A stretch of 64,000 bases of DNA, taken from an uncultured Ruminococcus sp. Its GTDB lineage: Bacteria > Bacillota > Clostridia > Oscillospirales > CAG-272. The notes beneath the pieces were generated by a model. It made no database searches and was not told the origin of the DNA. It saw only the letters and a list, made by a program, of their open reading frames with translations. Positions 3,732 through 61,462 of the stretch are shown one piece after another. The stretch covers positions 268,281 through 332,280 of the forward strand of contig CAZULC010000001.1 in the NCBI GenBank assembly GCA_964621165.1, written 5' to 3'. Within the stretch, counting starts at the first letter, position 1, and each line of letters starts with the position of its first letter. The position numbers and the translations under genes were made by a program.

Positions 3732-3750
3732 TGTTTGTGCATTTGTGTAC

Positions 3751-6602: not shown

Positions 6603-6839
6603 TGGGAGTGTGACCCGCCGGAGATGAAGGTGGTGCCGTTTTACCGGCTGATGGGGTTTGTGATTGACAGGCGGTTTCGCAGGCGTGGGATTGGCGGGGT
6701 GGTGCTTGAGGAAGCTGTCGCGAGGGTGTCCCGGGAGTTTGGGGTGAGACCGATTGCACTGGGGTGTCAGGAAGGAAATATTGGGGCGGCGCGGTTTTAT
6801 GAGAGACACGGGTTCCGGCGGGTGGAATGGTGGGGATGA
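6603..6839 (+). pseudogene. GNAT family N-acetyltransferase remnant (C-terminal half only)
   Basis: Acetyl-CoA pocket motif RRFRRRGIGGVVLEEAV and ARFYERHGF in ORF 6624..6839. There is no N-terminal half. The expected tail DEDDVYYLRY continues in another frame (ORF 6754..7005). Confidence 0.6.
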
Positions 6840-6885: not shown

Positions 6886-6976
6886 TCGTGGGAGTTTTTT
6901 ACTACTCAGCTGAAGTTGTGCCGATTTCACCTGTCGGGGTGTCCCGACCCGAGTTCACCTGTCGGGGTGTCCCGGC
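6886..6976 (+). repeat. Family A repeat unit with doubled terminal hairpin
   Basis: TCGTGGGAG..CAGCTGAAG..TTCACCTGTCGGGGTGTCCCGAC followed by a second TTCACCTGTCGGGGTGTCCCGGC. Confidence 0.6.
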
Positions 6977-8796: not shown

Positions 8797-8883
8797 GGGT
8801 CGGTAGCACCGACGGGCGGTCTCGGCGCTGCGGCAGTTGAGCAGGGGAGAAGACCCACGACGACGATTCTTTGGCTCCCGCAG
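8797..8883 (-). repeat. Family A repeat unit (reverse orientation)
   Basis: The reverse complement reads CTGCGGGAGCCAAAGAATCGTCGTCGTGGG..CCGCCCGTCGGTGCTACCGACCC. Confidence 0.65.
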
Positions 8884-9884: not shown

Positions 9885-9990
9885 AGCTTCCTCCGGAATA
9901 TAGTGAAGTATTTAATTTTATTTTATCACATTTCACAAAAAAATCAAGGGAATACAAAAAATTTACAATAAATTCAGAGAGGTGAACAAA

Positions 9991-11561: not shown

Positions 11562-11664
11562 GAGTCGGGAAGCGCCGATGCAGTGATAAACCACTACTGC
11601 TGTCTCGGCATTTCTTCAGCTGAATATGAGAGCGTTCCCGGGACGACGATTTTTTATCTCCCGC
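11562..11664 (-). repeat. Family A repeat unit (reverse orientation, degenerate hairpin)
   Basis: The reverse complement reads GCGGGAGATAAAAAATCGTCGTCCCGGGAACGC..CAGCTGAAGAAATGCCGAG..GGCGCTTCCCGACTC. Confidence 0.6.
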
Positions 11665-14772: not shown

Positions 14773-14881
14773 GCAGGGCGGGGAAGCCCCGACGGGCAAT
14801 TTCGGGTCGGGAAGCCCCGACGGGCGATTTCGGCATTTCTTCAGTTGAGAAGTGGAGACATCCCACGACGACCGGAGACTG
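14773..14881 (-). repeat. Family A repeat unit (reverse orientation, doubled hairpin)
   Basis: Begins on the base after the TAG stop at 14770-14772. CGGGGAAGCCCCGACGGGC occurs twice, then the reverse complement of the 5' module (..GGTCGTCGTGGGATG..). Confidence 0.7.
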
Positions 14882-15073
14882 TTAGCCGGTTCTCCAAAAT
14901 AGCGCCCGCGGTTTATCGGTGCTGAGAATGGACTCTTGGGTTCGGGTGAAAAAGTGAATTTTATACAGGCTGGCTCTGCGCGGGGCCGGCTTTTTATTTG
15001 GACGTGAATACTTTCGTCTCCGCGGAGGAAAGATATTTGGGGAAACCAAAATATATTTTACGGAGATGATTTT

Positions 15074-15797: not shown

Positions 15798-15808
15798 GTT
15801 TGGGGATT

Positions 15809-15902
15809 GCGGGAGCTATTGCATATGGTCGTAGGTTGGGAAGTTGTGCAGAGATTGCCTGTCGGGGCTTCCCGACTCGAGATTGCCTGTCGGGGCTTCC
15901 CG
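15809..15902 (+). repeat. Family A repeat unit (compact, doubled hairpin)
   Basis: TGCGGGAGCTATTGCATATGGTCGTAGG..GATTGCCTGTCGGGGCTTCCCGAC followed by a second GATTGCCTGTCGGGGCTTCCCG. Confidence 0.65.
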
Positions 15903-16096
15903 TAAAAGTAAAACCGCCCGGGAGCAATCCGGACGGCTTCGGGTTAGACGGACAAACAGCGTTATAGTTGTTTGTTTTTTTTGTACCGTTAGGTCGACGA
16001 TACGATTGAGTTAGAGAAGTAATGGACGTAGAATAATCTCGAAAACCTATAATCCTCCACATATGTAATAACACATTTAAAAGCTGTTGTCAAGAT

Positions 16097-16339: not shown

Positions 16340-16358
16340 TCTTTCTCCTTCCCGCCTA

Positions 16359-16496
16359 TTCTCCTTTAGCGAGAAGAAAAAGACCCAAAAGAGGAACTCC
16401 TTGGAAGTCTTGGGTATTTCGACTTCTGCGGAAGTCGACAAAGGGACTTTGTCCCCTTGACCTAAGCTTTTGTGGCGACAACGTGAAGTTTTAGGG
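16359..16496 (+). repeat. Family B structured repeat, copy B1 (5'-shortened, lacks hairpin H3)
   Basis: CTCCTTTAGCGAGAAG..TCGACTTCTGCGGAAGTCGA..GGGACTTTGTCCC..GTGAAGTTTTAGGG. Confidence 0.65.
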
Positions 16497-17351
16497 CTAC
16501 GGGATGTCGGGGATTACTGTCGGAACCTCATCAAGCTGCCACGGGTTTTTTACCACGGACTTCAACAGTTTCAATGCCGACGCGTAGTAGTATCCATCAC
16601 AGATTCTCTCATCTAATACAAACGTAAAGTCCATATACTGCTTCTTTTTCACCGAACCTTGTGCGTCCATCTCATACACCCGTCTCTTGGAGCCGAAGGA
16701 GAAAAATATGGGGCAGGTGCCGAAGTCATAGAGGTGGTGGTAGATTGGCGGGATGCCGAGGGAGCCCATTGACGTTATGAAGTACGAGCAGTGGAAGGGG
16801 CTTACCTTTGCGATGAACTTAGGCATGACTCCGAAGTAGTCGAGGGTCTTGAAAAACCACACGGCGAACTTGAACATGAGTCCGGGGAGTAGGGTAAACG
16901 CCCGTGCCGTATTGTCGAAGTCCCCGCCGGGGTTAGCTCTATAGGACGTGATTTCATAATCGAGGGCCTTATACACGTCCGCGGTGGTGGCGGTGGGAGG
17001 GAGTGTGATTTTCACGACTGTATCAGGGGACTGGAGGGACATTTCCTTTTTGATGGTGAGTGAGACTTCCACGTTTTTTCTTGTCCAGATTCGCTGACCC
17101 CGTATGAATCTATTTAGTGCGGGGCGCTGTGAAACTACGCGGATGAAGGCTGCTATCATGACGTGCATGATACTGATATTGGGCATACCGTTCTGTTGTT
17201 TTTCGCGGATATATTTTTCGATTTTATCTATTTCGATTGAGTCGGTGATGAAGTTCTGTGAGCCGGTGCGGTTTACCATGATGAAGGGGATGACGGCGGA
17301 CATTGGCGACACGGATTTGACCCGGCGGAATTCTTTTTCTTTTTTGGACAT
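16497..17351 (-). CDS. Acyltransferase with 2-oxoacid dehydrogenase E2 catalytic-domain fold
   Basis: C-terminal LDERICDGYYYA aligns with the DHRxxDG catalytic motif of E2/CAT-type acyltransferases. ATG 17351 (MSKKEKEF) is preferred to the TTG at 17375. Confidence 0.7.
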   Translation of the reverse strand: MSKKEKEFRRVKSVSPMSAVIPFIMVNRTGSQNFITDSIEIDKIEKYIREKQQNGMPNISIMHVMIAAFIRVVSQRPALNRFIRGQRIWTRKNVEVSLTIKKEMSLQSPDTVVKITLPPTATTADVYKALDYEITSYRANPGGDFDNTARAFTLLPGLMFKFAVWFFKTLDYFGVMPKFIAKVSPFHCSYFITSMGSLGIPPIYHHLYDFGTCPIFFSFGSKRRVYEMDAQGSVKKKQYMDFTFVLDERICDGYYYASALKLLKSVVKNPWQLDEVPTVIPDIP

Positions 17352-20399: not shown

Positions 20400-20620
20400 G
20401 GGTGAAGTGGAGCGGGTGCGGGAATTTTGTTCTTCTTTTTCTCCTTTGGCGAGGAGGAAAAAGAAGCAAAAAGAGGAACTTTTTATTGAGTCTTGGGGTG
20501 TTTCGACTTCTGCGGAAGTCGACAAAGGGACTTTGTCCCCTTGACCCTAACAGACTTTTGAAAAAGTTTGATCAAAACTTGTGGCAACAACGTTTAGTTT
20601 GAAGTTTTAGAGATCCTTCT
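20400..20620 (+). repeat. Family B structured repeat, copy B2
   Basis: H0 CTCCTTTGGCGAGGAG, H1 TCGACTTCTGCGGAAGTCGA, H2 GGGACTTTGTCCC, H3 ACTTTTGAAAAAGT. It ends 30 nt before the cimA ATG. Confidence 0.7.
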
Positions 20621-20649
20621 ATATATTAACAAGGTGAAGTTTAACAATT

Positions 20650-22245
20650 ATGAAGATTGAAATTTTTGACACGACTTTACGTGACGGTGCGCAGGGTGCG
20701 GGGGTTGAGTTTTCCCCTGACGACAAGCGGCGTGTGATTTCTGCCTTGGACAGGCTCGGCGTCTCCTACATTGAGTGCGGGATGATTACCGGGGTGAACG
20801 ACGACCCATTTTTCGCGGAGCTTGGGAACATACAGAAAAGTCTCGTGGTCTCACGCCTGGTTCTCTTCACCCGCACCGTGAAGCCATATGTTTCTCCTGC
20901 TGACGACCCAGCGATAGTTGCGGCTGGGAACTCTATGGTTTCGGTTATTGTAATCTACGGCAAAGCTTCCCTTTATCAGGTTTCCAGTGTTCTCCGTGTT
21001 GACCCGGGGGAGAATCTACGGATGATTGAGGAGACGGTGGCGTATCTTCGTTCCCGTGGGAAGGCTGTCATTTTTGACGCGGAGCATTTTTTTGACGGGT
21101 ACTCGGACAATCCGCTCTATGCGTCCCTTGTTCTTGAGACTGCGATAAACGCGGGTGCTTGCCGTGTGGTTCTCTGCGACACGAACGGGGGCATGATTCC
21201 GGACGTGATAGGCCTGATAACCCATGCGATGGCTGAGAAGTACAAGAACATCGGGATTCACTGCCACAACGACATGGGCATGGCTGTAAGCTGCACGATT
21301 TCCTCGGTCCTCGAGGGGGCATGTCAGGTTCAGGGGACCATGCTGGGGATTGGGGAGAGGTGCGGGAACGCGAATTTATGCACGCTCATACCGGTATTAC
21401 AGCTGAAGTTAGGCTTTGACTGCATTGGGGAGCGGATTCGTCACCTTACTTCTTCTGCCCGGGAGATTGCGGAAGCCGCGAATTTAACCTTTGACGAAAG
21501 TGAGCCTTTTGTCGGCGGATACGCTTTCACACACAAAGCCGGTGCGCACATTGACGGGGTTAACAAGGCTCCGCAGACGTTTGAGCATATTTCACCGGAG
21601 TCCGTTGGCAATCACCGGAACATTGTGATAAGCGGGTTATCCGGTCGTGCGGCTGTGCTTGACAAGATGGAGGTGTACCTGCCGGAGGAGCATTTCACGA
21701 AGGACGACGCCCGGGTTCAGCGTTGCTGCGACTTGATTCGGGAGAAAGAGGCTGCGGGGTACGACTACGAGGACGCGGGGGCTTCGCTTGCCTTATTGAT
21801 TGACGAGGTTATGGGTCGGCGGCGGAACTTTTTCAAGCTTTTGAGTCTCAAGGTTGTCTCGGACGAGGCGGAGGTCAGCGGGGACAGTGAGGATTCGTCG
21901 GAGTCGGCTGGAGTTTTATCGGCAACTGCCATGATTAAAATTTCCGTCCGGGGGCAGACTGAGCTTACGGCTGGCGAGGGAAACGGTCCGGTCAACGCGG
22001 TGGACGAAGCCCTGCGGCGGTCTTTGGTGCGGTTTTACCCCGAGGTGGCGCGGATGAGGCTGACGGACTATCGTGTTCGTGTGCTTGACTCCAAGGCTAC
22101 GGCGTCAATGGTGCGGGTTGCGATTGAGTCCACGGACGGTGAGACGGTCTGGCGCACGGTTGGGGTTTCCTCCGACGTGATTAACGCGAGCTGGCAGGCG
22201 CTGAGGGATTCGGTGGAGTACATGCTGAAAATGCGGCGTGGGTGA
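20650..22245 (+). CDS. cimA: Citramalate synthase (IPMS/HMGL family)
   Basis: MKIEIFDTTLRDGAQG, HCHNDMGMA, and a C-terminal LeuA-dimer-type regulatory domain. Length of 531 aa is typical of CimA. Confidence 0.85.
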   Translation: MKIEIFDTTLRDGAQGAGVEFSPDDKRRVISALDRLGVSYIECGMITGVNDDPFFAELGNIQKSLVVSRLVLFTRTVKPYVSPADDPAIVAAGNSMVSVIVIYGKASLYQVSSVLRVDPGENLRMIEETVAYLRSRGKAVIFDAEHFFDGYSDNPLYASLVLETAINAGACRVVLCDTNGGMIPDVIGLITHAMAEKYKNIGIHCHNDMGMAVSCTISSVLEGACQVQGTMLGIGERCGNANLCTLIPVLQLKLGFDCIGERIRHLTSSAREIAEAANLTFDESEPFVGGYAFTHKAGAHIDGVNKAPQTFEHISPESVGNHRNIVISGLSGRAAVLDKMEVYLPEEHFTKDDARVQRCCDLIREKEAAGYDYEDAGASLALLIDEVMGRRRNFFKLLSLKVVSDEAEVSGDSEDSSESAGVLSATAMIKISVRGQTELTAGEGNGPVNAVDEALRRSLVRFYPEVARMRLTDYRVRVLDSKATASMVRVAIESTDGETVWRTVGVSSDVINASWQALRDSVEYMLKMRRG

Positions 22246-22269: not shown

Positions 22270-22600
22270 CTGAATTTGGCGTTTTGGACTAATGCCCTTC
22301 TATAAACCGAATAATATTGTGTGGCAGAGTTTAAATTCGGACTATTGTCCCTCTGTTGGCTGTGCGATATTGTGCGGTGGAATTTATTTTTAGGCTATTG
22401 ACCTGTTGTCTCTGCAGTGGGTGAGTTTGAAATTGGACTATTGTCGCTCTATAAGCAGAATGATATTGTGCGGTTGAGCTTAAAATTGGACTAATGTCCC
22501 ATCGGCAAACGTGCTATATTGTGCGGTAGAATTTGATTTTGGACTATTGTTCTGCTGTCTCGGCTATGCGCGAGTTTGAAATTGGCCTAATGCCATACCG
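22270..22600 (+). repeat. Family E tandem array: seven GGACnnnnGTCC-type palindromes in a 149-bp higher-order repeat
   Basis: GGACTA(A/T)TG(T/C)CC-like sites start at 22286, 22339, 22393, 22435, 22488, 22541 and 22584. Spacings are 53, 54, 42, 53, 53 and 43 nt. Each site is preceded by ATATTGTGCGGTnGAATTTGAAATT. Confidence 0.7.
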
Positions 22601-25799: not shown

Positions 25800-26038
25800 T
25801 TATTTTTCTTTTATGGATTGGATGACGGGGAGATGGTGCGGATTGTTCTTTGTTCTTTTCTCCTTTATCGAGGAGCAAAGAACCAAAAGAGGAACTTCTT
25901 GGAAGTATTGGGGTGTTTCGACTTCTGCGGAAGTCGACAATGGGACTTTGTCCACTTGATCCTAACAAGCCTTTGAAAAGGCTTGACCTAAACTTTTGGG
26001 CTGACTACGTTTTGTTGAAATTTTTAGTGATCCTTCTT
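25800..26038 (+). repeat. Family B structured repeat, copy B3 (full length)
   Basis: H0 CTCCTTTATCGAGGAG, H1 TCGACTTCTGCGGAAGTCGA (25918-25937), H2 GGGACTTTGTCCA, H3 AAGCCTTTGAAAAGGCTT. It ends 14 nt before ATG 26052. Confidence 0.7.
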
Positions 26039-26051
26039 ATTGGGGAATATT

Positions 26052-36817: not shown

Positions 36818-37714
36818 TTAAACTTCACTATCGAAACGGAGAGTCTCCTGCTGACCGTCTTTTGAAATGACGACTCGTGGAAAAACTGACTGTGGTTCGT
36901 GTGAAAATAATGCCGGCTCGGGCAATGCGGGACTGTAGTGGGTGAGCCAGAGCCTGCGGCAGCTGGCGTCCTTTGCGAGATTCGCGGCGTCGTACATCGT
37001 CATGTGGAACGCTTCTTTTGCACGGGCGTTTTTCTCGCGTTCGAACATACCTTCGCAGATCAAAAGATCCGCATCAGCTGCCATGGTGGAGATGATGTCG
37101 CAGGGGCGGCTGTCGGTGGCGTAGGTGACGTGGAGTCCGCGACGGGATTTTCCAAGAACCATGTCGGGCGTGAAACCGTCAATCTGCTCACCCTTTTGCA
37201 GCCTCGACCAATATTTCATAGGTACATTGTTGGAAACTGCTCTGTCTCTGTCGAATTTACCGGCGCGTGAGATGCGGATGTCGTATCCAAGACAGGGACA
37301 GCGGTGTTTTAACTCAAACGACGTTACGGTGTACCCGAAAGCGGTGAAGCTGTCGAAGTCAGACATCTCGCGGAAGTTTATTCGGAACGGAAGTTCGGGC
37401 GCGATAGTCAGAAGGGACGAAACAATCCGCTCAACTCCACGGGGGCCGCAGATTTGAAGAGGTGAAGTCCGGCCTTCATTGCCCATCGATAGCAAAAATC
37501 CGGGGATGCCGCTGACGTGATCGGCGTGGAAGTGGGTCAGGAGGATGACGGCGGTTTTCGACAGGGAAAATCCCGCTTTTTTTACGGACAGCTGAGTCCC
37601 TTCACCGCAGTCGATGAGCATTCCGGTCCCCTCGTAGCGGAAATAAGCGCAGCTCAGGAATCGGTCGAGGCGTGGGACGGTGCCTCCTGTGCCGGGTAAA
37701 CAAACGTCTAACAT
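36818..37714 (-). CDS. rnz: Ribonuclease Z (MBL fold)
   Basis: GTGGTVP.., LIDCGEGTQ and the LTHFHADHVSG metallo-beta-lactamase motif. AAGGAG SD. Confidence 0.85.
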   Translation of the reverse strand: MLDVCLPGTGGTVPRLDRFLSCAYFRYEGTGMLIDCGEGTQLSVKKAGFSLSKTAVILLTHFHADHVSGIPGFLLSMGNEGRTSPLQICGPRGVERIVSSLLTIAPELPFRINFREMSDFDSFTAFGYTVTSFELKHRCPCLGYDIRISRAGKFDRDRAVSNNVPMKYWSRLQKGEQIDGFTPDMVLGKSRRGLHVTYATDSRPCDIISTMAADADLLICEGMFEREKNARAKEAFHMTMYDAANLAKDASCRRLWLTHYSPALPEPALFSHEPQSVFPRVVISKDGQQETLRFDSEV

Positions 37715-38096
37715 GGAATACGCTCCTTTTTGGATGATGAAATGGAAATAAATGTTAATTCAAGCGAGAATTATCGGATTATTTGGATGGAAAAATATGA
37801 AGAAATTTCGCGAAAGCGGAAAATTATGCAGAAAAATAACTGAGGTTAATTTTGGTTAATTCAGAAATACTACAACCGCACAACAAAAGGCCCGGGCGGC
37901 TGAACACAGGTCAAAACCGGCGAGCCTCACGTTGGCTGGGTGATGTTGATTTAGAATTGGACTAATGTGCTGTTTGGGCAATGGGTTCGTTGGAAGCGAA
38001 TTTTGTCGAGGAAAATGCTATTTTGATGAGCAGATTACGCTTTTGAATCCTATATAATAAGGAAGGAAATTGCGAATTTTCAGTAAAGTCGTGGTT

Positions 38097-38777
38097 TGCG
38101 GGAGCTTAAGTTTGTCGTCGAAGGTTGGCTTTAAATCAAAACTGAACGAACGATGTGCTTGCCCGTGGGGGCTTCCCCGCAATCGTAGGTTTTCGGGCGG
38201 TTTTGGGGCTGATGAAGTGCCGTGCTTGCCGCTACCGACCCCACTGCGGGAGCTTAAGTTTGTCATCGAGGGTTGGCTTTAAATCAAAACTGAACGAACG
38301 ATGTGCTTGCCCGTGGGGGCTTCCCCGCAATCGTAGGTTTTCGGGCGGTTTTGGCTGATGAAGTGCCGTGCTTGCCTGTCGGTGCTACCGACCCCACTGC
38401 GGGAGCTTTAGTTTGTCATCGAGGGTTGGCTTTAAATCAAAACTGAACGAACGACGTGCTTGCCCGTGGGGGCTTCCCCACAATCGTAGGTTTTCGGGCG
38501 GTTTTGGGACTGATGAAGTGCCGTGCTTGCCGCTACCGAACCCACTGCGGGAGCTTTAGTTTGTCATCGAGGGTTGGCTTTAAATCAAAACTGAACGAAC
38601 GACGTGCTTGCCCGTGGGGGCTTCCCCACAATCGTAGGTTTTCGGGCGGTTTTGGGACTGATGAAGTGCCGTGCTTGCCGCTACCGAACCCACTGCGGGA
38701 GCTTTAGTTTGTCATCGAGGGTTGGCTTTAAATCAAAACTGAACGAACGACGTGCTTGCCCGTGGGGGCTTCCCCAC
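38097..38777 (+). repeat. Tandem array of Family A composite units (4.6 x 148-153 bp)
   Basis: Units start at 38097, 38245, 38398, 38546 and 38694 (TGCGGGAGCTT..). Units are near-identical. The last unit is cut at 38777 and supplies the last 14 codons of the GH2 gene on the other strand. Confidence 0.85.
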
Positions 38778-40961
38778 CTTGGCGGCTTCTGCGGCCTCTT
38801 TTGACTCTATGTACATGTTGTATTCGTTGACTATTGTAGTGCCGCAGGCGCATTTGAAGGTCAGCTTCACTTGGAACACCGTCTTCGGCTTCGTTCCTGC
38901 GGGGAACTTGAACTTTATTACGCCGCCTTTGGCGTTTTTGTTCTCCTCTGCCACAACATGGTGTACGCCAGTGTAATATTCAACTCCGTCAAGCGTAATT
39001 TCGGAGATAATGTCGCCTTCCGGTGCGTGAGGGCCGTCGTTGAGCAGCCATGTCTCGAACTCGAACTCCTCCTCCGGAAACCACGCAAATTTCCTGAACT
39101 TGGCTGAGGGAACAACATCGCGGAGGGAGTCTTTTACCGCAAAATACCCGCCCTTTTTCACGTTGGGGTATGCGATGAGGGAGTTGTTCGCGGCGCACTT
39201 CCACGGCTCGCACCAGCACCAGTTGATTGCCATTGCGCAGAGGGGCTTCTGACGGCGGGCTTCCTCGAAAATTGCCTTATATCCGATGCCTTGGAGCCTG
39301 TTTGACGTCTCGACGATTGACTCAATTGTGGAAATATCACCAAATCTTTCCAGCGTTGGAAGACTCAGCCACGGATTCATGCCGCCCCATGCATAGAACG
39401 CGTGATGTGCCTGCCAAACTCCGCCAGGCTTGGGTGGGAACAGCTCGTCCTCGGGGATAAATGAGCGGAGGTACTCTACACTCGGCGGAGTTGCGGGAAT
39501 TCCAAACTCGGTGTAGGCTGTGGCGCGGGTCCGACCGAAGAGTGCGAACTGGTCCTCACCGGTTTCAAGATCGAGGAAGGTATAGCCGCCGTGCTTCATT
39601 CCGTCGATTGGCGAGGTGGGGTTGAAGGGGACTTCGGGGCAAAGCTCGAGGGTGAGTGCGTTGAGGAGTCGGAGCGCGAGGTGCTGATCCGTCATGCCCG
39701 ACCAGCTATTGAACAGCTCGTTTCCGCCGCACCAGATTGCGATGGACGGATGTGAGCGGAGCTTCAGAATTATTGCGGTTGCCTCCTGCTTGAGAATGGA
39801 TAAATATTCAGGGGAGTCGTAGTAGTTATTGCAGGACAGGGGGAACTCGAACCAGAGCATGATTCCGTATTTATCGCAGAGGCTGTAAAAAATTTCCTTC
39901 TGGCATCCGGTACCGCCCCAGCAGCGGAATACGTTCATGTTGGCTTCATACGCGAACCTGATGAGTTCCTCGTATTCTTTATCTGTCACAATGCCGGGGA
40001 AGATTTCCTGATTGACGTAGTTGGAGCCTTTTGCGAAAACGTTGACTCCGTTGAGTGTAATCTGAGCCGGTGGCCATGCGCGGGACTTAGGGAAGCCTTG
40101 TGGGTCGATGAGTCTGCCGCAGTTTTGGGTGAGCTGGACTCTACGGAAGCCGATTTTCTTATCAACTGAGTTTTCTTCATTATAAACGGTGACTGTATAA
40201 AGGTTGGGTTCGCCGTAGCCTCTACACCACCAGAGCTTGGGATTTTCGACGTACGCGGTGAATTTACCGTCAATGGTTGTTCCTTCGGCAACGACATCTC
40301 CTGCTGTGTCGGTGATTTTGACCTTACAGGGGAGTGTTGAGTCGACGGTTGTAGTGACTTCGGCGTGTGTGAAGTCCGGGGAAAGGGTATAGCGGGATTC
40401 TGTTCTGCCGATATAGTATTGGTTACGTGATTCTACGAATGTGTCGTCCCATATACCGGAGGGGATAGCTCTGGGGTGCCAGTCCCAGTAGTAGGAGACG
40501 GGGGGTTTACAGGACTGGGAGGCTTGGTTACGGTCCATTGGCATACCCTCGAGCATGGGGTGGGGGTGGATTTTGATTTTGAGGTTATCGCCGGGCTTAG
40601 TGTTACGACCGAAGAGTGAGTTTGCGAAGTCGTCGAGGCAGATATCGACCCGTGAGAACATACCCTCGTGGTGGAAGATCTCGCGGTCATTGAGGAGTAC
40701 GGTCCAGATATAGTCGATCCCCTCGGTAGCGAACCAGATTTTCTCGCCGGCCTTACGCTGGAAGTCGAGAGTTGTGGTATAATACCAAGTAAAAGGTTCC
40801 AGCTGCGTCATCTTTTCGTGCTGCATACCGTAGTTTATATCCGAGATGAATTCTGGGTGTGCCTTAATATAGTCATTCTGCACGTTTCCGGGAACCTGAG
40901 CGGGAAACGGCGGGCAGTCGACATCCGGCGAGTAAGCGGTAAAATTTTGGTAAAACTTCAT
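38733..40961 (-). CDS. Glycoside hydrolase family 2 (beta-mannosidase / exo-glucosaminidase-like)
   Basis: GH2 architecture with a sugar-binding N-terminal region, a TIM barrel with FRCWGG and CGGNELFN. AAGGAG SD. The C-terminal GKPPRASTSFVQF is encoded by the antisense of a Family A unit. Confidence 0.85.
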   Translation of the reverse strand: MKFYQNFTAYSPDVDCPPFPAQVPGNVQNDYIKAHPEFISDINYGMQHEKMTQLEPFTWYYTTTLDFQRKAGEKIWFATEGIDYIWTVLLNDREIFHHEGMFSRVDICLDDFANSLFGRNTKPGDNLKIKIHPHPMLEGMPMDRNQASQSCKPPVSYYWDWHPRAIPSGIWDDTFVESRNQYYIGRTESRYTLSPDFTHAEVTTTVDSTLPCKVKITDTAGDVVAEGTTIDGKFTAYVENPKLWWCRGYGEPNLYTVTVYNEENSVDKKIGFRRVQLTQNCGRLIDPQGFPKSRAWPPAQITLNGVNVFAKGSNYVNQEIFPGIVTDKEYEELIRFAYEANMNVFRCWGGTGCQKEIFYSLCDKYGIMLWFEFPLSCNNYYDSPEYLSILKQEATAIILKLRSHPSIAIWCGGNELFNSWSGMTDQHLALRLLNALTLELCPEVPFNPTSPIDGMKHGGYTFLDLETGEDQFALFGRTRATAYTEFGIPATPPSVEYLRSFIPEDELFPPKPGGVWQAHHAFYAWGGMNPWLSLPTLERFGDISTIESIVETSNRLQGIGYKAIFEEARRQKPLCAMAINWCWCEPWKCAANNSLIAYPNVKKGGYFAVKDSLRDVVPSAKFRKFAWFPEEEFEFETWLLNDGPHAPEGDIISEITLDGVEYYTGVHHVVAEENKNAKGGVIKFKFPAGTKPKTVFQVKLTFKCACGTTIVNEYNMYIESKEAAEAAKVGKPPRASTSFVQF

Positions 40962-41008: not shown

Positions 41009-41452
41009 TGAAGGTGAACGAGGGGGACGTGCTTCTTTAAAGAAGCTGTGCAGGAACTTTATTCCTCATTCTGTTTTATGTGAAGTTTAGCAGGACATGT
41101 TCACTCCGAGCTAATCTGTAGTTTAGTAAGGAGGATGCGGAGAAAATATAGAATACCAAGGGATCAGGAGGGATATAATACGGCAGTCAGGAACAGCCTT
41201 ATTGGAGATAGCTTGCTATCTCCGGTACACAGTTCCCGCCCCCTGTCTGCCCACGCCGGATTCAGATTGCGGGATGGGGCAGTGATAACGTGCAGTTTAC
41301 ATCAGTTATATCAGCGCGAGCGTTGGTGCTGATGGTTGAGAAGATCATGAAATGTTGCGATTGCTGGATTAGCAGTGATAACGTTTGGTTCTACAGCAGT
41401 TATATCAGCGCGAGCGTTGGTGTTGAGGGTGGAGAAAATCATGACGGTATAT
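41009..41452 (+). ncRNA. Family C structured intergenic element, copy b (3' module tandemly duplicated)
   Basis: Same block order as copies a and c. Hairpin GGAGATAGC-TT-GCTATCTCC is present. The 3' module GCAGTGATAACG..GTTATATCAGCGCGAGCGTTGGTG occurs twice (41279 and 41372, 93-nt period). Confidence 0.5.
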
Positions 41453-41826
41453 TATCTTGTAATAAAGTAAATCCCGGAGTGACGTTTCAAAACAAGCGTA
41501 GATGAAACCCTGCTCTCGCAAGGACGGCGCCCTCTCCGATGGTTTGTGCTCCCAGCGTCCTAATCACTACGGCGGCGCGGAATGCGTCTCACGGTAATGG
41601 AGGGAGGTCTGCATACCTGCACCGGAAGTCCAGGCTCCTTTTTACTCTTTGTGGGTTTTTACGCTCATCTTTATTTCGTACACCCCAGGACAGGGTTGAT
41701 TATATGATGTTGGTTTTGCGTACTTCTGTTATAGTTCGGTTTAAGTTTGCGTTATCCTTGACTTTTCAATCTTAGAATCAAGTTGTTCTTATGAAATTTA
41801 ATTTTGCTTAAATTGCTTGTGAAGCC

Positions 41827-43501: not shown

Positions 43502-43676
43502 TTTCCCGGTAGCTTGGGTTTGTCGTCGAGGGATTGCTGTAAATTTAAACTGCAAAAATGACGTGTCTGCCTGTCGTTGCTATTGACTGCGGGAGCTAAA
43601 GTTTGTAGTCGAGGGATCGCTTCAAATTCAGACTTCAAAAACGACGAGATAGCCCGCGGGGACTTCCCCGCCCCCA
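43502..43676 (+). repeat. Two tandem Family A units (first with a degenerate hairpin)
   Basis: ..GGTAGCTTGGGTTTGTCGTCGAGGGATTGC.. then TGCGGGAGCTAAAGTTTGTAGTCGAGGGATCGC..GACGAGATAGCCCGCGGGGACTTCCCCGC. Confidence 0.65.
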
Positions 43677-44821: not shown

Positions 44822-45125
44822 TGGAATTGGATTTAGAGAATTCAGGGATTTCGTTGTTATTTTCTCATTTATCGATGAGCAAAGGACCAAAAGAGGAACT
44901 CCTTGGAAGTATTGGGTGTTTCGAATTCTTCGGAATTCGACAATGGGACCCGCTTCCCTTGACCCTAACAAACTTTTGAAAAGGCTTGATCTAAACTTTA
45001 TTGCTACAACGTGAAGTTGAGTAGTGAAGTTTGCCCGCGGGGGCTTCCCCGCTTCCCTTGACCCTAACAAGTCTTTGAAAAGGCTTGATCTAAACTTTTC
45101 GGCAACAAAGTGAAGTTGAAATTTA
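44822..45125 (+). repeat. Family B structured repeat, copy B4 (chimeric, 3' module duplicated around a Family A hairpin)
   Basis: H0 CTCATTTATCGATGAG and H1 TCGAATTCTTCGGAATTCGA. The 3' module CTTGACCCTAACAA..AAAGGCTTGATCTAAACTT occurs twice, separated by CCCGCGGGGGCTTCCCCGC (45034-45052). Confidence 0.7.
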
Positions 45126-45141
45126 TAGGAGGTATATCAAA

Positions 45142-45939
45142 ATGATTAAACTTGGTGTGAATTCGGTTTTGTTCAAGGCGTTTCCTTACCGGGTGGTGGC
45201 TGAACAGATTGCGAAAATCGGGTACGACGGGGTGGAGCTTTCCGCCATACAGGGAATGTGCGAGCATCTCTGTCTCGACCGGTGGCGAGAACAGGCGGAG
45301 GAATTGAAGTCAATCCGGGAGGAATTTAATCTTCCCTACCTTGCCATGGAGGCGGCAACCCTTGACCGGGAGCGGTTACTCAAAGCCTACGAAGCGGCGG
45401 CTGAGATTGGCATTCCCGTGGTGAATATCGGTCCCGGCGGACGTTCAGGCGACGAGGATTCCCTCAAGGCCCAGCTGGAGCTTATTTCCCGTCTGGCTGA
45501 GGACGCGGAATCCTTTGGCGTGAACCTCTGCGTGAAGGCACATGTAGGCGCGGCGGTGTACTCGACTCCCACGACCCTTGCGATGATGGAGTCGGTTAAG
45601 TCCCCTGCGTTCGGCGTCGACATGGACCCGTCGCACATTCACAGAGCCGGAGAAAATCCCGCTTTGGCTTTACCGGCGGTTCTCTCGAAGATGAAGCACA
45701 TCCACATACGGGACTGCAAGGGCGAAGGGCCGTCCCCGGGTGCGCCGGTTGATCAGGCCTGCGGAAAGGGCGACATTGACCTGTGGGGGTACTTCAAAGC
45801 AATGGTTGAGCAGAACTACGACGGTCCGGTTGACCTTGAGGTTATAGGTCCGGAGCAGAGCCTTGAGTCGGCGGTGCAGATTGCGGCGGAAAGCTACGGA
45901 TACATGAACGCGGTGCTGAAAAAGCTCGGCGCGAGATAA
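45142..45939 (+). CDS. Sugar phosphate isomerase/epimerase (xylose isomerase-like TIM barrel)
   Basis: AGGAGG SD. MIKLGVNSVLF.., GYDGVELS and HIHIRDCKG are typical of the family. Confidence 0.8.
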   Translation: MIKLGVNSVLFKAFPYRVVAEQIAKIGYDGVELSAIQGMCEHLCLDRWREQAEELKSIREEFNLPYLAMEAATLDRERLLKAYEAAAEIGIPVVNIGPGGRSGDEDSLKAQLELISRLAEDAESFGVNLCVKAHVGAAVYSTPTTLAMMESVKSPAFGVDMDPSHIHRAGENPALALPAVLSKMKHIHIRDCKGEGPSPGAPVDQACGKGDIDLWGYFKAMVEQNYDGPVDLEVIGPEQSLESAVQIAAESYGYMNAVLKKLGAR

Positions 45940-49754: not shown

Positions 49755-49985
49755 GCTTTCTCCTTTATGGATTTATGTACAAGGGGAGAATAGTGCGGGA
49801 TTTCGTTGTTCTTTTCTCCTTTATCGAGGAGCAAAGAACCAAAAGAGGAACTCCAGAAAGAGCTTGCTCTTTCAGAAGTCAATGGGGTGTTTCGAATTCT
49901 GCGGAATTCGACAATGGGACTATGTCACCTTGACCTAAACTTTTGGGCTGACAATGTTTAGTTTAAATTTATTGAGATACTTCTA
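49755..49985 (+). repeat. Family B structured repeat, copy B5 (lacks hairpin H3)
   Basis: H0 CTCCTTTATCGAGGAG, H1 TCGAATTCTGCGGAATTCGA, H2 GGGACTATGTCAC. It ends 28 nt before ATG 50013. Confidence 0.7.
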
Positions 49986-50012
49986 CGTAACATTTTTTGG
50001 AGGATTTTTACC

Positions 50013-51098
50013 ATGTCTAAAATTTTTAAATCTGCCGTTGTTGGTATGGGCGGAATTGGTCACACTCATGCCACGTGCATCAAAAACGACCCCTTAGCCG
50101 AGCTTATTGCCGTATGCGACTTAATCCCCGCGAAGGCTGACTCAGCCGGTGAAAAATTCGGCGTACCGGCCTACTATTCCCTCAAGGACATGCTCTCCGC
50201 TCATCCGGAAATCGAGGTAGTCCACGTCACCACCTCCGGTTTTGAGAACGGCTCATGGCACTACGTTCCCACCATGGAAGCGTTGGACGCTGGCCGTCAC
50301 GTTCTTGTGGAGAAGCCCATTTCCAACAACATAAACGAAGCCCGCGAGATGGTTGACTATGCGGCGAAGAAGGGGTTATACTTGGGCTGCGACCTGAACC
50401 ACTATTTCAGCGGACCGGCTGACCGTGCACGTGAGATTATTGCGTCCGGCGGAGTAGGCGAGCAGGTTTACACCATGATGAAGGTGGGCTTTGACGGTTC
50501 ATCCACAAAAGTAAATCGTGCGGACAAGACATCCCGCTGGCAGATGCCCTACTCCCATGCGAAGGCGTTTCTGACCCACCCATTCTCGGTCATGCGGCAT
50601 TTCTGCGGCGACGTGACCCACATTCAGGCGTTCATGGACAAGCCGGGCGCCCGTCGTCAGTCGGAGGACTTAATGCTGTCGATTCAGTCGATTCACATGC
50701 GCTTCCAGAACGGCTGTGTGGGATATTTACTCTCCCAGCGTGGCGACGCGATGTTCGGGCTTGGCGGCTGGTGGTCATTTGAGCTGGCGGGGACTCAGGG
50801 AACGTTCTGCATTGAGAACTGTGTGGAGAAGCTGACGTACTGGAAGCAGGGTCAGGCTCCCGAGGTGATGAACACAGGAGTAACGTCCTTTGACGCCACC
50901 TTCCCGATCCGGATACACGCGTTCTACGAGGATCTCGCGAACAACGTTCCGCTTGAGCATTTACGTGCGTCCGGACGTGACGCGCTTGCTACGATGGAGT
51001 ACATTTTTGCGGCGATAGACTCCTACGAGAGCGGCGGTCAGATAGTGCGTCCCCACGCCCTTCCGGCATACCACGGCGACGTACACATCATTCACTAA
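50013..51098 (+). CDS. Gfo/Idh/MocA family oxidoreductase
   Basis: FKSAVVGMGGIGHTHA Rossmann N-terminus and the VEKPIS motif. GGAGG SD. Confidence 0.85.
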   Translation: MSKIFKSAVVGMGGIGHTHATCIKNDPLAELIAVCDLIPAKADSAGEKFGVPAYYSLKDMLSAHPEIEVVHVTTSGFENGSWHYVPTMEALDAGRHVLVEKPISNNINEAREMVDYAAKKGLYLGCDLNHYFSGPADRAREIIASGGVGEQVYTMMKVGFDGSSTKVNRADKTSRWQMPYSHAKAFLTHPFSVMRHFCGDVTHIQAFMDKPGARRQSEDLMLSIQSIHMRFQNGCVGYLLSQRGDAMFGLGGWWSFELAGTQGTFCIENCVEKLTYWKQGQAPEVMNTGVTSFDATFPIRIHAFYEDLANNVPLEHLRASGRDALATMEYIFAAIDSYESGGQIVRPHALPAYHGDVHIIH

Positions 51099-51156: not shown

Positions 51157-51195
51157 GGGTTATGGTATGGTCGTTGGATTACTTACAATTTCAGC

Positions 51196-51647
51196 TCAGG
51201 AAATGCCGGATATACCCTCGGGGGTTCCCCGTACGGCTTCCTTCATCAGCTCAAGGGCGGCTTCGTCGTTTTTTTTTCGCTTTATCTATAAGTCCGCATA
51301 TTTCTGCCCGGGCGGCGGGGTCAGCGAGGGTTTCGAGGATTTCTTCGTGGGTGCTTCCGCTCCTCTTCCTTATCTCACCCACTACGGCGGCGGTTTCGGC
51401 GAAGGCTTCGGCGGTTTTTTTATAGATTTCGGCTTTATCGGGGGGATTTTGCGGCAAGGAAAGTTAAGTATTTGGCGGCACATGACCGTCCGTCGCTGAG
51501 GCAGTTCAGTGCGTCGGTGTGGCACAGCAGCTTCTCGAAGGATACGGTCAGGCTTCCGTCGGTTGACCTGGGAAAGTTTTTCTCGTTTGAGAGGGCGTTT
51601 TTCCAGCCGTCGTAGGCGAGGGTTCCCTTACAGTAGCCGCAGTCCAT
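51196..51647 (-). pseudogene. Hypothetical gene apparently split by two frameshifts
   Basis: Adjacent minus-strand ORFs 51435..51647 and 51251..51457 are in different frames. Reading resumes past a T9/A9 run near 51280 to a stop at 51196-51198. No family was recognised. Confidence 0.25.
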
Positions 51648-51679
51648 TCGTCCGGTGAGTGCGCGGATTCCGTTCCGGA

Positions 51680-52828
51680 TTACGTTTTTTCATCAAATGG
51701 CTCGCCTTTTACCGCTCCAATGCACATGACGGCCTGTGTGTCGGTGTTCTCCCACCAGTTTTCGCTGATGAAGCAGCCACACTCGTCGAAGGTGACGTTT
51801 CCGCCGAACTCCGGGTCATGCTGGAAGAAATTCCAACCGTAAAGGGTTATGTTATTGTCAAGGGACTGATTTGAGGTTTCGGCAGAAGTTCCCCATTCCC
51901 GGTAGCCGGTGATTATGCAGGGTTCCGGTGGTCCTATGATACCCAGCGCTATGCAGGGGTAGCCTTCGTCTATGTGGGACTTGATGAAGTTTGTGAAGTC
52001 GTCCTTGGTGGTGGTTTTGTCCCGCCCGGTGAAGAAGAATTCCCGTCCCAAAGCTTCTGCTGGGATTCTGTAGACGCCGCCGCTTTCGTCGAAGGTGTGG
52101 CAGATGTCAACGTTGCTCAGGTCCCAGTCGAGGCTGTTCCACGCGAATCTGAACGCGGCTCCGGTGATTGCCATGGTTGTGGGGCAGTCAACGTCCTCAC
52201 CGAGGTAGGCGAGAGTTGATTTGAGGCAGATGGGGTAGGGTGTACAGCCGCCGTATTCGCCGAAGCCAGCCTTGGGGATGCCATATAAGATGGTGCTGTT
52301 GGTGGATTGTTTTGTCATGGGTATGTCGCTCCTTTGTTCTTTTTTGGGAATAATGCCTACGCTGAATATACCGTCACATAATTGCACCTTTCCGACAATG
52401 GGTCGTTCTGAAAAAGATTTGTCGCCATGCTGCGGGAGTTTTGTTTTGTCGTCGTGGGATAGCTTTACGGTTTCAGCTTCAGAAGTGCCGTTTTGCCTGT
52501 CGGGGCTTCCCGACCTGAATTTGCTGGGATTCATGCCTGTGATTCTGTGGAATGAGCGGGTGTAGGTTTCATGGCTGGAGAAGCCGTACTTTAGTGCTAT
52601 GTCGAGTATGGTTTTGTCCGAGTGGAGGAGGTCGAGGGCTGAGCGGTGGATTTTCCGCGTGAGGATATACCTTGTGATTGGCATGCCTGTGTCGTGGCGG
52701 AACTGGGTTCGGATATGCACCCACGAGAAGCCGAGTGCTTTTTGGATTTGCTCCGGTGTGAGTGGGGAGTCGAGAATATGGGACTCGATATAGCGGATTG
52801 CGGCTATGGTGCAGAGTGGATAGCTCAT
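51680..52828 (-). CDS. AraC-type HTH regulator with an uncharacterised C-terminal domain, carrying an in-frame Family A insertion in the linker
   Basis: N-terminal HTH (ITRYILTRKIHRSALDLL..IALKYGFSSHETYTRSFHRITG). The linker SGSPDRQNGTSEAETVKLSHDDKTKLPQ is encoded by the antisense of repeat 52430-52514. AAAGGAA SD. Confidence 0.75.
   Translation of the reverse strand: MSYPLCTIAAIRYIESHILDSPLTPEQIQKALGFSWVHIRTQFRHDTGMPITRYILTRKIHRSALDLLHSDKTILDIALKYGFSSHETYTRSFHRITGMNPSKFRSGSPDRQNGTSEAETVKLSHDDKTKLPQHGDKSFSERPIVGKVQLCDGIFSVGIIPKKEQRSDIPMTKQSTNSTILYGIPKAGFGEYGGCTPYPICLKSTLAYLGEDVDCPTTMAITGAAFRFAWNSLDWDLSNVDICHTFDESGGVYRIPAEALGREFFFTGRDKTTTKDDFTNFIKSHIDEGYPCIALGIIGPPEPCIITGYREWGTSAETSNQSLDNNITLYGWNFFQHDPEFGGNVTFDECGCFISENWWENTDTQAVMCIGAVKGEPFDEKT
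52430..52514 (+). repeat. Family A repeat unit located inside a CDS (antisense to it)
   Basis: TGCGGGAGTTTTGTTTTGTCGTCGTGGGATAGC..CAGCTTCAGAAGTGCCGTTTTGCCTGTCGGGGCTTCCCGAC. All Family A modules are present. Confidence 0.7.
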
Positions 52829-54079: not shown

Positions 54080-54406
54080 GATGGGAAACGAGGGGAGACG
54101 CGCTTCTTGAAAGAAGCTGTGCAAGAACTTTACTCCTCATTCTTTATCACGTTCAGTTGAGTAGGGGAACGGTCACTTCGTACAATTCTGCAGCTTAGCA
54201 GGGAGGAGTCCGGATAAGGTGGAGCGATCCAGGGGATGAGGACACAGTGGCTGACAGCAGTCAGGGACCGCCTTGTTGGAGATAGATTGCTATCTCCGGT
54301 ACACGTTCCCGACCCCTGCCTGCCCACGCCGGATTCAGATTGCGGGATGAAGCAGTGATAACGTTTTATTTACAGCAGTTATATCAGCGCGAGCGGAGTG
54401 CTTGCC
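54080..54406 (+). ncRNA. Family C structured intergenic element, copy c
   Basis: Outer stem GGGGAG(54092-54097)/CTCCTC(54133-54138) encloses GCTTCTT-GAA-AGAAGC. Hairpin GGAGATAG-ATTG-CTATCTCC is present. The 3' hairpin is TGATAAC..GTTATATCA. Confidence 0.5.
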
Positions 54407-57681: not shown

Positions 57682-57786
57682 CATTATTGCACAAGTCCCA
57701 GTTGTATGGCTCATTATTGCACAAGTCCCAGTTGTACGGCTCATTATTGCACAAGTCCCAGTTGTACGGCTCATTATTGCACAAGC
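57682..57786. repeat. 30-bp perfect tandem repeat, 3.5 copies
   Basis: CATTATTGCACAAGTCCCAGTTGTA(T/C)GGCT is repeated from 57682. The only variation is one T/C. Confidence 0.9.
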
Positions 57787-59887: not shown

Positions 59888-61031
59888 ATGAACGTTGCGG
59901 GTCACAAAACAACGGCTTTGCTTTGAGTCCGGCTTCATCTTCACGGTCATGGCGGAGCTTTGGCGGGATTCTGACGTCGATCAGGGGCTTTGTCAGACGC
60001 AATCCAGTGCTTACATAACGGCGGCTCTGGCTGCATTCACATCGGTGACTGCTCCGCTGGACATCGCGTATCTCGGCTACTTCGACTACCGCACACTCAC
60101 CTGCCTGTTCTGCACCCTGTCGGTGATCTGCGCCCTGAAGGAAATCCGGTTCTTCTACGTCTGTGCGGAGAAAATCACATCATTCGCGAAAAATCTGCAG
60201 CTTGCCGCGGTGGTGCTGGTTTACATCACGTTTATCGGGTCAATGCTCAATACGATATGGCGCTGATTATGTTCCTGCCCCTCGGGTACATAGTCCTGAA
60301 ATGTACGCATACGAAAAAAGTACACGGCGTACGTCTTTATTCTCCAGAACATAGCGGCGAACCTCGGAGGCATGCTGACCCCATTCGGCAACCCGCAGAA
60401 TCTGTATCTGTACTCGTACTTCTCCATTCCAGCCGGTGAGTTTGTCACGGTGATGTTCCCGCCGTTTTTAGTCGCGGTGGCCCTGATAACCCTTGCCTGC
60501 TTTGCCCTTCCGAAGAAGCCGATGGAATTTTCCGAGGAGATTGAGAAGCTGCCCACGGCCCGGCTTGCGGCGTAACTCGTACTGTTTGCGGCGTCGATTC
60601 TCGATGTGTTTCGGGCGTGCCCCTACTGGATCGGGCCTATTGTCATCACGGCGGCACTTCTGGTTCTCTACAGGAAAGCCCTCGCCGAGGTTGACTACGG
60701 ACTCTTGTTCACCTTCGTGTGCTTCTTCATTTTCTCCGGCAACATGTCCCGTATTCCGGTGGTGTCCTCTTTCATGAATTACCTCGTGGGAGGCGGTGAG
60801 AGAGCGGCGCTGTTCTGCTCGGCCATGGCCTGCCAGGCGATTTCAAACGTACCCAGCACGATTCTCCTGTCGAAGTTTGTGTCAAGCTTGAAGCCCCTTC
60901 TCTACGGCGTGAACATCGGCGAATGCGGCACCATAATTTCATTCCTCGCCAGACTGATAACGTTCCGCACGTACATGTCCCACAAGAGCGAGTTCGGCGG
61001 TTCGGCAGTCTACATGGGACTTTCAGCGTGA
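59888..61031 (+). pseudogene. ArsB/NhaD-superfamily anion permease (YbiR-like), multiply disrupted
   Basis: Family motifs are spread over three frames (..YFDYRTLTCLFCTLSV.., NDMALIMFLPLG, ANLGGMLTPFGNPQNLYLYSYF, ..ACQAISNVPSTILL). Frameshifts lie near 60245 and the A6 run at 60313-60318. There is an in-frame TAA at 60573-60575. Confidence 0.7.
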
Positions 61032-61138: not shown

Positions 61139-61462
61139 TGCGGGAGCTTGAGCTTGCCGTCGAGAGAGCTTTTCCGCTTTTGGCTGAAGAAATGACGAGA
61201 ACACCCGCGGGGGTTTCCCCGCTTCCTTCATTATTATATATAAGAATTTTTGCGGGAGCTTGAGCTTGCCGTCGAGAGAGCTTTTCCGCTTTCGGCTGAA
61301 TAAATGACGAGAACACCCGCGGGGGTTTCCCCGCTTCTTTCATTATTATATATAAGTATTTTTGCGGGAGCTTGAGCTTGTCGTCGAGGGATCTTTTCCG
61401 CTTTTGGCTGAAGAAATGACGAGAACACCCGCGGGGGTTTCCCCGCTTCTTATTATATATAG
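61139..61462 (+). repeat. Tandem array of Family A units (3 x 112 bp)
   Basis: TGCGGGAGCTTGAGCTTG(C/T)CGTCGAG..GACGAGAACACCCGCGGGGGTTTCCCCGC plus a 28-nt AT-rich spacer. Units start at 61139, 61251 and 61363. Confidence 0.85.

Follow-up and report, generated by a model that had tools for sequence, protein, structure and literature searches.

How did the end of a glycosidase gene come to be encoded by a tandem repeat? The question is raised by a 64,000-nucleotide stretch of DNA from an uncultured Ruminococcus sp., which we call the window, where a tandem array at positions 38097 to 38777 runs into the 3' end of a GH2-family glycosidase gene. This gene (38733 to 40961, minus strand), taken from the list of open reading frames (ORFs), encodes 742 amino acids (aa), and its protein record carries the Pfam domains Glyco_hydro_2_N2 and Glyco_hydro_2. 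An initial annotation had proposed that GH2 takes its last 14 codons and its stop codon from the array, and that a repeat insertion had replaced or extended the native C terminus. We found that the ORF and the array do overlap by 45 nucleotides (nt), which is 14 codons plus the stop. However, the insertion does not account for the fusion, which stems from a separate 37-nt deletion. We consider it probable, if by no means certain, that the array itself is a local amplification of a lineage-specific, noncoding, hairpin-ended interspersed repeat, here called Family A, and that this repeat represents a new family of the REP/BOX type.

The sense strand of the array is the plus strand, antisense to GH2. 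TRF reported a period of 148 with 4.6 copies and 95% matches. A repeat search recovered five copies of a 75-nt core at spacings of 148, 153, 148, and 148, which agrees with the unit starts first given for this composite array (38097, 38245, 38398, 38546, and 38694). The layout is a core plus a linker, four times over, followed by a last core. The initial annotation described a 66-nt second half in each unit; this segment is present, but it is not a separate sequence, because it is itself a Family A copy that has lost about 20 nt from its 5' end. Five 84-nt cores therefore alternate with four 5'-truncated copies of 64 to 69 nt, and all nine Family A copies stand head-to-tail.

The units differ in divergence along the array. 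Core 1 (38097 to 38180) is the most diverged, matching cores 3 to 5 at 79 of 84 positions, and its terminal hairpin, GTGGGG-GCTT-CCCCGC, contains one T.G wobble. Linker 1 (38181 to 38244) is a short form of Family A whose hairpin has lost 7 nt, and core 2 follows at 38245 to 38328; both were delimited by nhmmer and unit alignment. Linker 2 (38329 to 38397) is a short form with an intact hairpin, GTCGGT-GCT-ACCGAC, at 38377 to 38392, and its nhmmer match (38330 to 38392, E = 4.9e-6) covers model positions 21 to 83. This longer variant had been placed in unit 3, but it belongs to the 153-nt unit 2 (38245 to 38397). Cores 3 (38398 to 38481), 4 (38546 to 38629), and 5 (38694 to 38777) are identical at 84 of 84 positions. 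Linkers 3 (38482 to 38545) and 4 (38630 to 38693) are also identical, and units 3 and 4 agree at 148 of 148 positions. Units 1 and 2 differ from units 3 and 4 at 5 to 7 positions and by indels, and their cores differ from cores 3 to 5 at 3 to 5 positions. Because the three GH2-proximal cores are identical, the last duplications must have been very recent, as the high identity of the units had first suggested. The array does stop in unit 5, at 38777, but not at an arbitrary point: a full 84-nt core has its 3' end exactly there. The plus-strand ORFs of the array are artefacts, as had been supposed; the 83-aa ORF had no homologue in a protein search, and no other arrays were found that way.

We then turned to the same locus in relatives. 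The 90%-identity cluster of the window GH2 has three other members, which are 92 to 94% identical at the aa level. Their loci (L025, L026, and L027) share only 74 to 86% DNA identity with the window and therefore come from congeneric species, not strains. In all three, GH2 ends in AEAAKPKKKVEKFVQF followed by an intact native stop, and a single antisense Family A core starts 1 to 2 nt past that stop. Therefore, the repeat had sat behind the gene without touching GH2. Core 5 of the array is orthologous to this single core (90 to 92% identical by blastn and alignment), and the copy number varies from one core in the three congeners to five in the window.

The alignment also located the junction. 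A segment of 37 nt (CCGAAGAAAAAAGTAGAAAAATTCGTCCAATTTTGAG and variants), present in L025 and L026 with AAG at both edges, is missing from the window, where a single AAG (38778 to 38780, minus strand) stands in place of the AAG, 37 nt, and AAG of the congeners. The missing segment coded for the last 11 codons, PKKKVEKFVQF, and the native stop. Because 37 cannot be divided by three, the reading frame is shifted as it enters the antisense strand of core 5 and runs through VGKPPRASTSFVQF to a TGA stop (38733 to 38777, minus strand). With 11 native residues exchanged for 14 repeat-encoded ones, the protein is 3 aa longer than its 739-aa orthologues and 23 aa longer than 719-aa relatives. The alignment thus shows that a later, microhomology-flanked deletion at the repeat/gene junction caused the fusion, and not the insertion of the repeat. 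No orthologue carries the same 14 residues without a repeat, in keeping with a repeat-derived tail; the orthologue tail is different and shares only the final FVQF.

The native tail, AKPKKKVEKFVQF, and the new one are of equal length after K-P, and both end in FVQF and a stop, with 13 of 15 nt identical (compared over window 38733 to 38750 and L025 12205 to 12222). We considered whether the native tail might be an older, domesticated repeat copy. However, local alignment against shuffles gave p = 0.01 to 0.24, and this idea was not accepted. We therefore treat the FVQF likeness as an unexplained coincidence. In all likelihood, the altered tail is a side effect that is neutral or slightly deleterious.

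The surroundings of the array are in part shared with the relatives. The left flank (38051 to 38096, plus strand, beginning TATATAATAAGGAAGGAAA) is common to the congeners in blastn and alignment, so that the array grew between fixed flanks. The spacer between GH2 and the downstream metallo-beta-lactamase (MBL)-fold gene (36818 to 37714, minus strand) measures 1018 bp in the window, 362 to 389 bp in the congeners, and 41 to 88 bp in the more distant loci L020 to L024. These distant loci keep the gene order DUF1292, GH2, MBL-fold hydrolase, RACo-like (some loci), and AddA/AddB, and nhmmer found no Family A copies in their approximately 47 kb. The closest GH2 proteins outside the cluster of the window are 719 aa long, 67 to 72% identical, and end in NEYNMVVGA. 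A likely intrinsic terminator of GH2 (37878 to 37926, minus strand), GGCTCG...CGGGCC and then TTTTGTTG, is kept in the congeners; it was read from the sequence, as its long loop caused a simple terminator scan to miss it. In L025, L026, and L027, a conserved hairpin and T-run lie about 90 nt beyond the core. The array is located between the GH2 stop and the likely terminator, in the 3' untranslated region (UTR). Between this terminator and the left flank, a window-specific stretch of 93 nt (37958 to 38050) carries a TTGGACTAATGT-type motif of another repeat family and has no counterpart in the congeners, as judged by blastn gaps. The TTGGACTAATGT-motif family also forms a 149-nt tandem array of 2.1 copies at 22284 to 22594.

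Family A is not restricted to the array. A hidden Markov model built from 12 window copies detected about 24 copies, fragments included, across the 64 kb, or about one copy per 2.7 kb. The consensus reads TGCGGGAGC, about 8 nt, GTCGTCGWGGGA, a variable part, CTGAAGAAATGCCGAGA, TTGCC, and the terminal hairpin GTCGGG GCTT CCCGAC. Pattern searches of the window gave 18 matches to the hairpin against 0.1 expected and 10 matches to the 5' motif against 0 expected. All truncated forms (28, about 46, and 64 nt) retain the hairpin end and lack the 5' end, and extra modules are joined at the hairpin end. Modules of 28 nt that consist of the hairpin alone occur as tandem duplications at 6921 to 6976, 14779 to 14828, and 15858 to 15904.

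The terminal hairpin is 16 nt long, with a 6-bp stem and a loop of 3 to 4 nt. It occurs in 17 distinct versions, in which 99% of cells are paired and three of the six pairs are changed on both sides, as in the stems GTCGGG/CCCGAC, GCGGGG/CCCCGC, GTGGGG/CCCCAC, and GTCGGT/ACCGAC. The covariation score was 0.388, compared with 0.147 for shuffled versions, and none of 500 shuffles scored as high. Read on the sense strand of the element, each of the four wobble pairs is G.U, a weak hint that this is the strand that folds. However, the whole element folded no better than shuffles for most copies (z of -0.8 to 0), which argues against a globally structured RNA. A global structure with an outer GCGGG/CCCGY helix and inner stems was rejected: the sequences hardly vary, the outer helix overlaps and conflicts with the hairpin that covaries, and the z values are mostly insignificant. 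By this covariation analysis, the terminal hairpin is the only part of Family A with clear evidence of structural selection.

Comparison with L025 revealed turnover at other sites. The window has two adjoining full cores at 43505 to 43671 (plus strand), whereas the orthologous site in L025 has one short-form copy with a very different interior. A 3' fragment of about 46 nt (51187 to 51232, plus strand), absent from L025, replaces the stop of an AraC-type HTH_18 gene, so that the protein end changes from LMNEAVK to LMKEAVRGTPEGISGIS. This gene (51233 to 52828, minus strand, about 520 codons) also contains a complete 84-nt core in frame, as 28 codons read antisense (52431 to 52514, plus strand), between the HTH domain and the C-terminal domain. 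The 34-residue insert is absent from the best HTH_18 homologues among 1.8 billion representative proteins, and a second insert of 13 residues (51860 to 51898) is likewise without a counterpart in homologues. At least three frameshifts follow the first insert, one of them at an A9 run; either the gene is decaying or a pseudogene, or the assembly contains long-read indel errors. Taken at the level of aligned sequence, these cases indicate that Family A copies are gained, lost, and exchanged between congeners and that they can land in frame and replace stops.

Several other copies lie near genes or gene fragments. A core at 6518 to 6602 (plus strand) stands beside a 5'-truncated GNAT acetyltransferase fragment (6624 to 6839, plus strand), of which the C-terminal half remains, and a short-form copy with a duplicated 28-nt hairpin module follows at 6886 to 6976 (plus strand). 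A piece of a CitMHS transporter (60606 to 61031, plus strand; profile positions 239 to 319 of 336) is another Family A neighbour. The core at 11584 to 11664 (minus strand) is about 35 to 45 nt past the stop of the ORF at 9982 to 11541. At 14779 to 14909 (minus strand), a copy with an extra 28-nt hairpin module lies 5 nt past the stop of a GH26-like gene. The window also has a second tandem array, of three cores with a period of 112 (61139 to 61446, plus strand), a core at 8800 to 8882 (minus strand), an internally deleted copy with an extra hairpin module at 15808 to 15901, a diverged copy at 3790 to 3870, and a hairpin-module fragment at 45003 to 45052 (the last three on the plus strand).

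How far does the family extend beyond this genus? Rfam gave no match at the gathering score over the whole window, and only chance-level matches over the array at E up to 10. Two array units had no BLAST match in plasmid and phage collections. A scan of genome contigs for the 5' motif gave only single chance matches, in high-GC genomes. A strict two-part pattern had no match in viral and metagenome scans, the hairpin alone had none in the viral scan, and a full-text literature search with the hairpin sequence returned no papers. However, 26 loci emerged when metagenomes were scanned for the hairpin preceded by its lead-in (TTGCCYGTSGGGGCTTCCCSRC). Eight of these come from the assembly RCNI01 and represent a longer relative of 150 to 180 nt, which resembles Family A at its 5' end (TTGCGGGCGG), carries a GTCGTC motif, differs in its internal hairpins, and ends in an identical terminal hairpin; its elements are clustered and tandem, with a 94-nt period. 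JAEIGA01 contigs contain a true short-form Family A copy, and PDWI01 contigs contain a third body type with the hairpin. The hairpin and its TTGCC lead-in thus recur on differing repeat bodies.

These loci revealed an unexpected regularity at stop codons. In three RCNI01 genes, the gap between stop and hairpin is -1 nt, because the G of the TAG stop doubles as the first base of the stem (TA/G; L034 3215-3238, L034 10611-10634, and L044 3610-3633, at an aldolase gene, an RNase J-like gene, and mnmE). mnmE retains its native FCVGK end. RCNI01 repeats also adjoin dnaN and parA/parB. In L028, which holds an orthologue of the GH26-like gene, the copy starts 0 nt past the stop (TAA/G), and the GH26-like gene keeps its native end position; the gap of 5 nt at the window GH26-like gene is found after the addition of the extra hairpin module. 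The L038 junction is also at 0 nt (TGA/G), a further junction type reads TAAG/G, the GH2 congeners have the hairpin 1 to 2 nt past the stop, and L045 has a gap of 11 nt. The hairpin lies at -1 to +1 nt from the stop of a long ORF at about 5 of 34 independent loci, compared with 0.17% of random positions (binomial p of about 3e-9), and at -1 to 11 nt at about 7 of 34, compared with 1.0% (p of about 4e-8); the count of about 34 is a rough tally, and the control used intergenic positions and orientations in the same sequences. The hairpin end faces the stop in every gene-adjacent cluster of RCNI01 and at about two thirds of the window loci.

What could place a repeat so precisely? Targeting of a TA dinucleotide was rejected, because it fits only the three RCNI01 junctions. 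A replication-strand bias was rejected as well: the sense strand lies on the G-rich strand at 10 of 13 window loci, but RCNI01 loci show the two orientations next to each other. Across the window (positions 1 to 64000), GC skew is strongly positive (0.01 to 0.28 in every 2-kb bin). A targeting rule might account for the precision, as might a role for the hairpin where coding sequences end, in the 3' UTR. It is conceivable, but we think it unlikely, that the shared hairpin module (TTGCCYGTCGGGGCTTCCCGAC) defines a stop-codon-linked superfamily in several uncultured Clostridia, either through stop-targeted insertion or as a selected device that works with the terminating ribosome.

The compared loci show the following history for the GH2 locus. 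An ancestor of the genus gained one 84-nt copy in the GH2 3' UTR, antisense and with the hairpin 1 to 2 nt past the native stop. In the window, this copy was amplified in situ, between the same flanks, to the five cores and four 5'-truncated copies of the array as assembled. The 37-nt deletion with AAG at both ends removed the last 11 codons and the stop, so that the ribosome now reads 14 antisense repeat codons. As for the mechanism of mobilization, we infer that the hairpin may be a recognition or processing site for making copies and that copying may start there, because the truncated forms keep this end, new modules join it, and the newest duplications and the deletion are located at it. 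Truncation to a common 3' end and head-to-tail joining would also fit hairpin-initiated copying, for example by a rolling circle or by reverse transcription; we know of no small-repeat system of this kind described in bacteria. The hairpin end is the conserved module and is probably recognized by a protein, and both the growth of the array and the 37-nt deletion may be by-products of slippage or unequal recombination at this end.

Several observations weigh against local amplification of a mobile, noncoding repeat. Pfam scans of the ORFs in the window and of those adjoining the RCNI01 elements revealed only housekeeping genes, with no transposase, RAYT, reverse transcriptase, or other partner gene in the window or the fetched loci. 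No terminal inverted repeat (TIR) beyond about 7 nt, target site duplication (TSD), or conserved target motif was found. The likeness of about 7 nt, seen when the 5' end (TGCGGGA) is set against the reverse-complemented 3' end (TGCGGGGA), is imperfect and absent from GTCGGG-type copies, and no direct duplication was seen in the flanks of more than 12 copies or in one filled-versus-unfilled comparison. Relatives of only 74 to 86% DNA identity provided no exact empty site with clean boundaries. The frameshifts in at least one assembled gene mean that small indels need care. Finally, the stop-flush placement and the constant antisense polarity are not predicted by purely selfish random insertion, and hint at a targeting rule or a role in the 3' UTR.

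This last point bears on a different explanation, that Family A, or at least its hairpin, has been selected as a cis-acting element at the 3' ends of mRNAs, either a block to 3' exonucleases or a termination-coupled device. The footprint of a ribosome at the stop codon would then melt the hairpin, arrays would be redundant, and spread would be secondary. The frequency of hairpins flush with a stop (about 5 of 34 loci) or within 11 nt of it (7 of 34), against 0.17% and 1.0% at random, is what such an element would produce. So are the intact native C termini at flush sites (FCVGK of mnmE, and the GH26-like gene), the orientation of the hairpin end toward the stop in all gene-adjacent RCNI01 clusters, the position of copies between stop codon and terminator, and the retention of orthologous copies behind GH2 and the GH26-like gene since the species split. 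However, the four G.U wobbles of the sense strand would be C.A mismatches in the mRNA of the gene, although this is a small sample, in which a mutational bias may also play a part. About one third of the window copies are not behind a gene but upstream of genes or in a divergent promoter region. Copies also interrupt or re-tail genes, and their internal sequence turns over freely. We therefore regard a selected 3'-end element as possible, yet clearly the less expected outcome.

The same wobble pairs favor the plus strand, and with it the idea that the array is a set of tandem small RNA genes convergent with GH2, like the tandem small RNA paralogues of other Firmicutes. TATAAT-like boxes, which precede the first core of the GH2 site and also lie in each linker of the 61139 array, fit this idea as well, as does the conservation of the 5' and 3' ends of the element across genera. 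However, there is no Rfam match, most copies fold no better than shuffles, and the hairpin is not followed by a U-tract. In the GH2 array, the linkers are truncated copies instead of promoter-terminator units, one copy is inside a coding sequence, and the interior is not conserved at orthologous sites. Small RNA genes are thus highly improbable. An assembly artefact, in which repeat expansion or collapse or an indel error produced the copy number, the 37-nt deletion, or both, would explain why three units are 100% identical, and the several frameshifts in at least one window gene, one at an A9 run, are typical of noisy long-read assemblies. But units 1 and 2 have substitutions and indels of their own, which misassembly of a single copy could not create, and the same architecture recurs in the second array (61139) and in many doublets. 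Loss of 37 nt with AAG microhomology is not a homopolymer-type error, and the 350-kb contig suggests that reads spanned the 681 bp. We consider an artefact very unlikely.

Among described systems, local amplification of an interspersed repeat places Family A with the small interspersed repeats of bacteria, in which its stop-codon-flush placement across organisms is the notable part. The REP and BIME sequences of Enterobacteria and Pseudomonas resemble it as short, GC-rich hairpin modules of high copy number that are mostly extragenic and clustered, often lie in the 3' UTR between stop and terminator, and show compensatory changes in their stems. Escherichia coli REPs near stop codons reportedly affect translation and mRNA stability. 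However, Family A lacks the conserved GTAG (or GTGG) of REPs and REPINs and has a TTGCC(C/T) lead-in instead. Its hairpin is the 3' end of a longer body of 84 to 180 nt, and its hosts are Clostridia. Its window clusters are direct and head-to-tail, unlike the inverted doublets of REPINs, with mixed orientations in only one RCNI01 cluster. The window and the fetched sequence revealed no gene for a RAYT (Y1 HUH) transposase.

BOX elements have the module order boxA-boxB(n)-boxC. These modular Firmicutes repeats, known from Streptococcus pneumoniae, reiterate one module in tandem, cluster with other families, and encode no transposase (PMC10969869). Family A is similarly modular, with variable tandem reiteration and no encoded transposase. 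However, the sequences are unrelated, and the reiterated part is 3' terminal (28, 64, or 148 nt), unlike the internal boxB. To our knowledge, stop-codon-flush placement has not been described for BOX. The RPE repeats of Rickettsia insert in frame in protein-coding genes and are read as extra residues (PMC10969869), to which the one in-frame 28-codon copy in an interdomain linker and the two C-terminal re-tailings of the window compare. The in-frame copy sits in the HTH_18 gene with downstream frameshifts, so its translation is uncertain and the gene may be decaying. RPEs are about 150 bp long and mostly intragenic, whereas Family A is mostly extragenic and unrelated in sequence. Bacterial miniature inverted-repeat transposable elements (Correia, ERIC, Nezha, Chunjie, and others) are small, nonautonomous, and multicopy, with truncated variants and occasional translational fusions (PMC10969869). 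Family A is likewise small (84 nt, where these elements are below about 500 bp), multicopy, noncoding, and of effect on neighbouring genes, but it has neither a TIR of about 10 to 50 bp nor a TSD.

Other systems were rejected. A PATE derived from IS200/IS605, which has subterminal hairpins at each end and a fixed target or cleavage motif of 4 to 5 nt on the left, does not fit, as Family A has its single conserved hairpin at the 3' end and its flanks share no conserved tetranucleotide. The array is not a CRISPR array, in which unique spacers separate short identical repeats: its linkers repeat one another and derive from Family A, and no CRISPR direct-repeat family matched the window at the gathering score or the array at E up to 10. 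It is not an array of integron attC sites, since the element ends are TGCGGGAGC and CCCC(G/A)C and there are no GTTRRRY sites. Fragments of diversity-generating retroelements and of group II introns were ruled out on anatomy.

The window holds further repeats and a probable RNA gene. A likely divergent 6S RNA (41467 to 41694, minus strand) matches the full Rfam model RF00013 with 30.2 bits (E = 2e-4), below the gathering score of 46.4, and is 94 to 98% identical to L025, L026, and L027, compared with about 80% for the flanking DNA. A second repeat family of about 170 to 200 nt with several hairpins has five plus-strand copies (16350 to 16520, 20425 to 20655, 25840 to 26045, 44845 to 45145, and 49795 to 50018), four of them directly upstream of plus-strand genes, and copies occur in L025 too. 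Its stems covary (TCGACTTC/GAAGTCGA versus TCGAATTC/GAATTCGA), and it has no Rfam match. A repeat of about 330 nt is present in three copies that are 73 to 100% identical (3436 to 3747, 41018 to 41350, and 54093 to 54395) and is repeated in the congeners; two copies form the 5' regions of minus-strand genes, namely GH2 and a GFO/IDH/MocA oxidoreductase gene. TRF also reported a 30-nt tandem repeat of 3.5 copies, 98% identical, at 57682 to 57785, in an ORF-poor stretch between amidase and HMGL-like genes.

The GH2 fusion is an ordinary by-product, and the repeat behind it is of the ordinary genome-clutter kind apart from its abutment on stop codons. For GH2 the consequence is small: 14 residues encoded by the repeat take the place of its last 11, and the 3' UTR is about 650 nt longer. 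For annotation, neither the GH2 tail nor the ORFs inside the array should be taken as meaningful. Such repeats nevertheless reshape gene ends, and they break short-read assemblies. This window shows two genes with new tails, one insertion in frame, and several neighbours cut short. An uncultured genus of Clostridia and at least two to three other metagenomic organisms carry this dense, undescribed family of hairpin-ended repeats. That its copies abut stop codons, even at essential genes such as mnmE, is a regularity both clean and open to test. Should this abutment reflect targeting or a function in translation termination, the property would be new among bacterial interspersed repeats.

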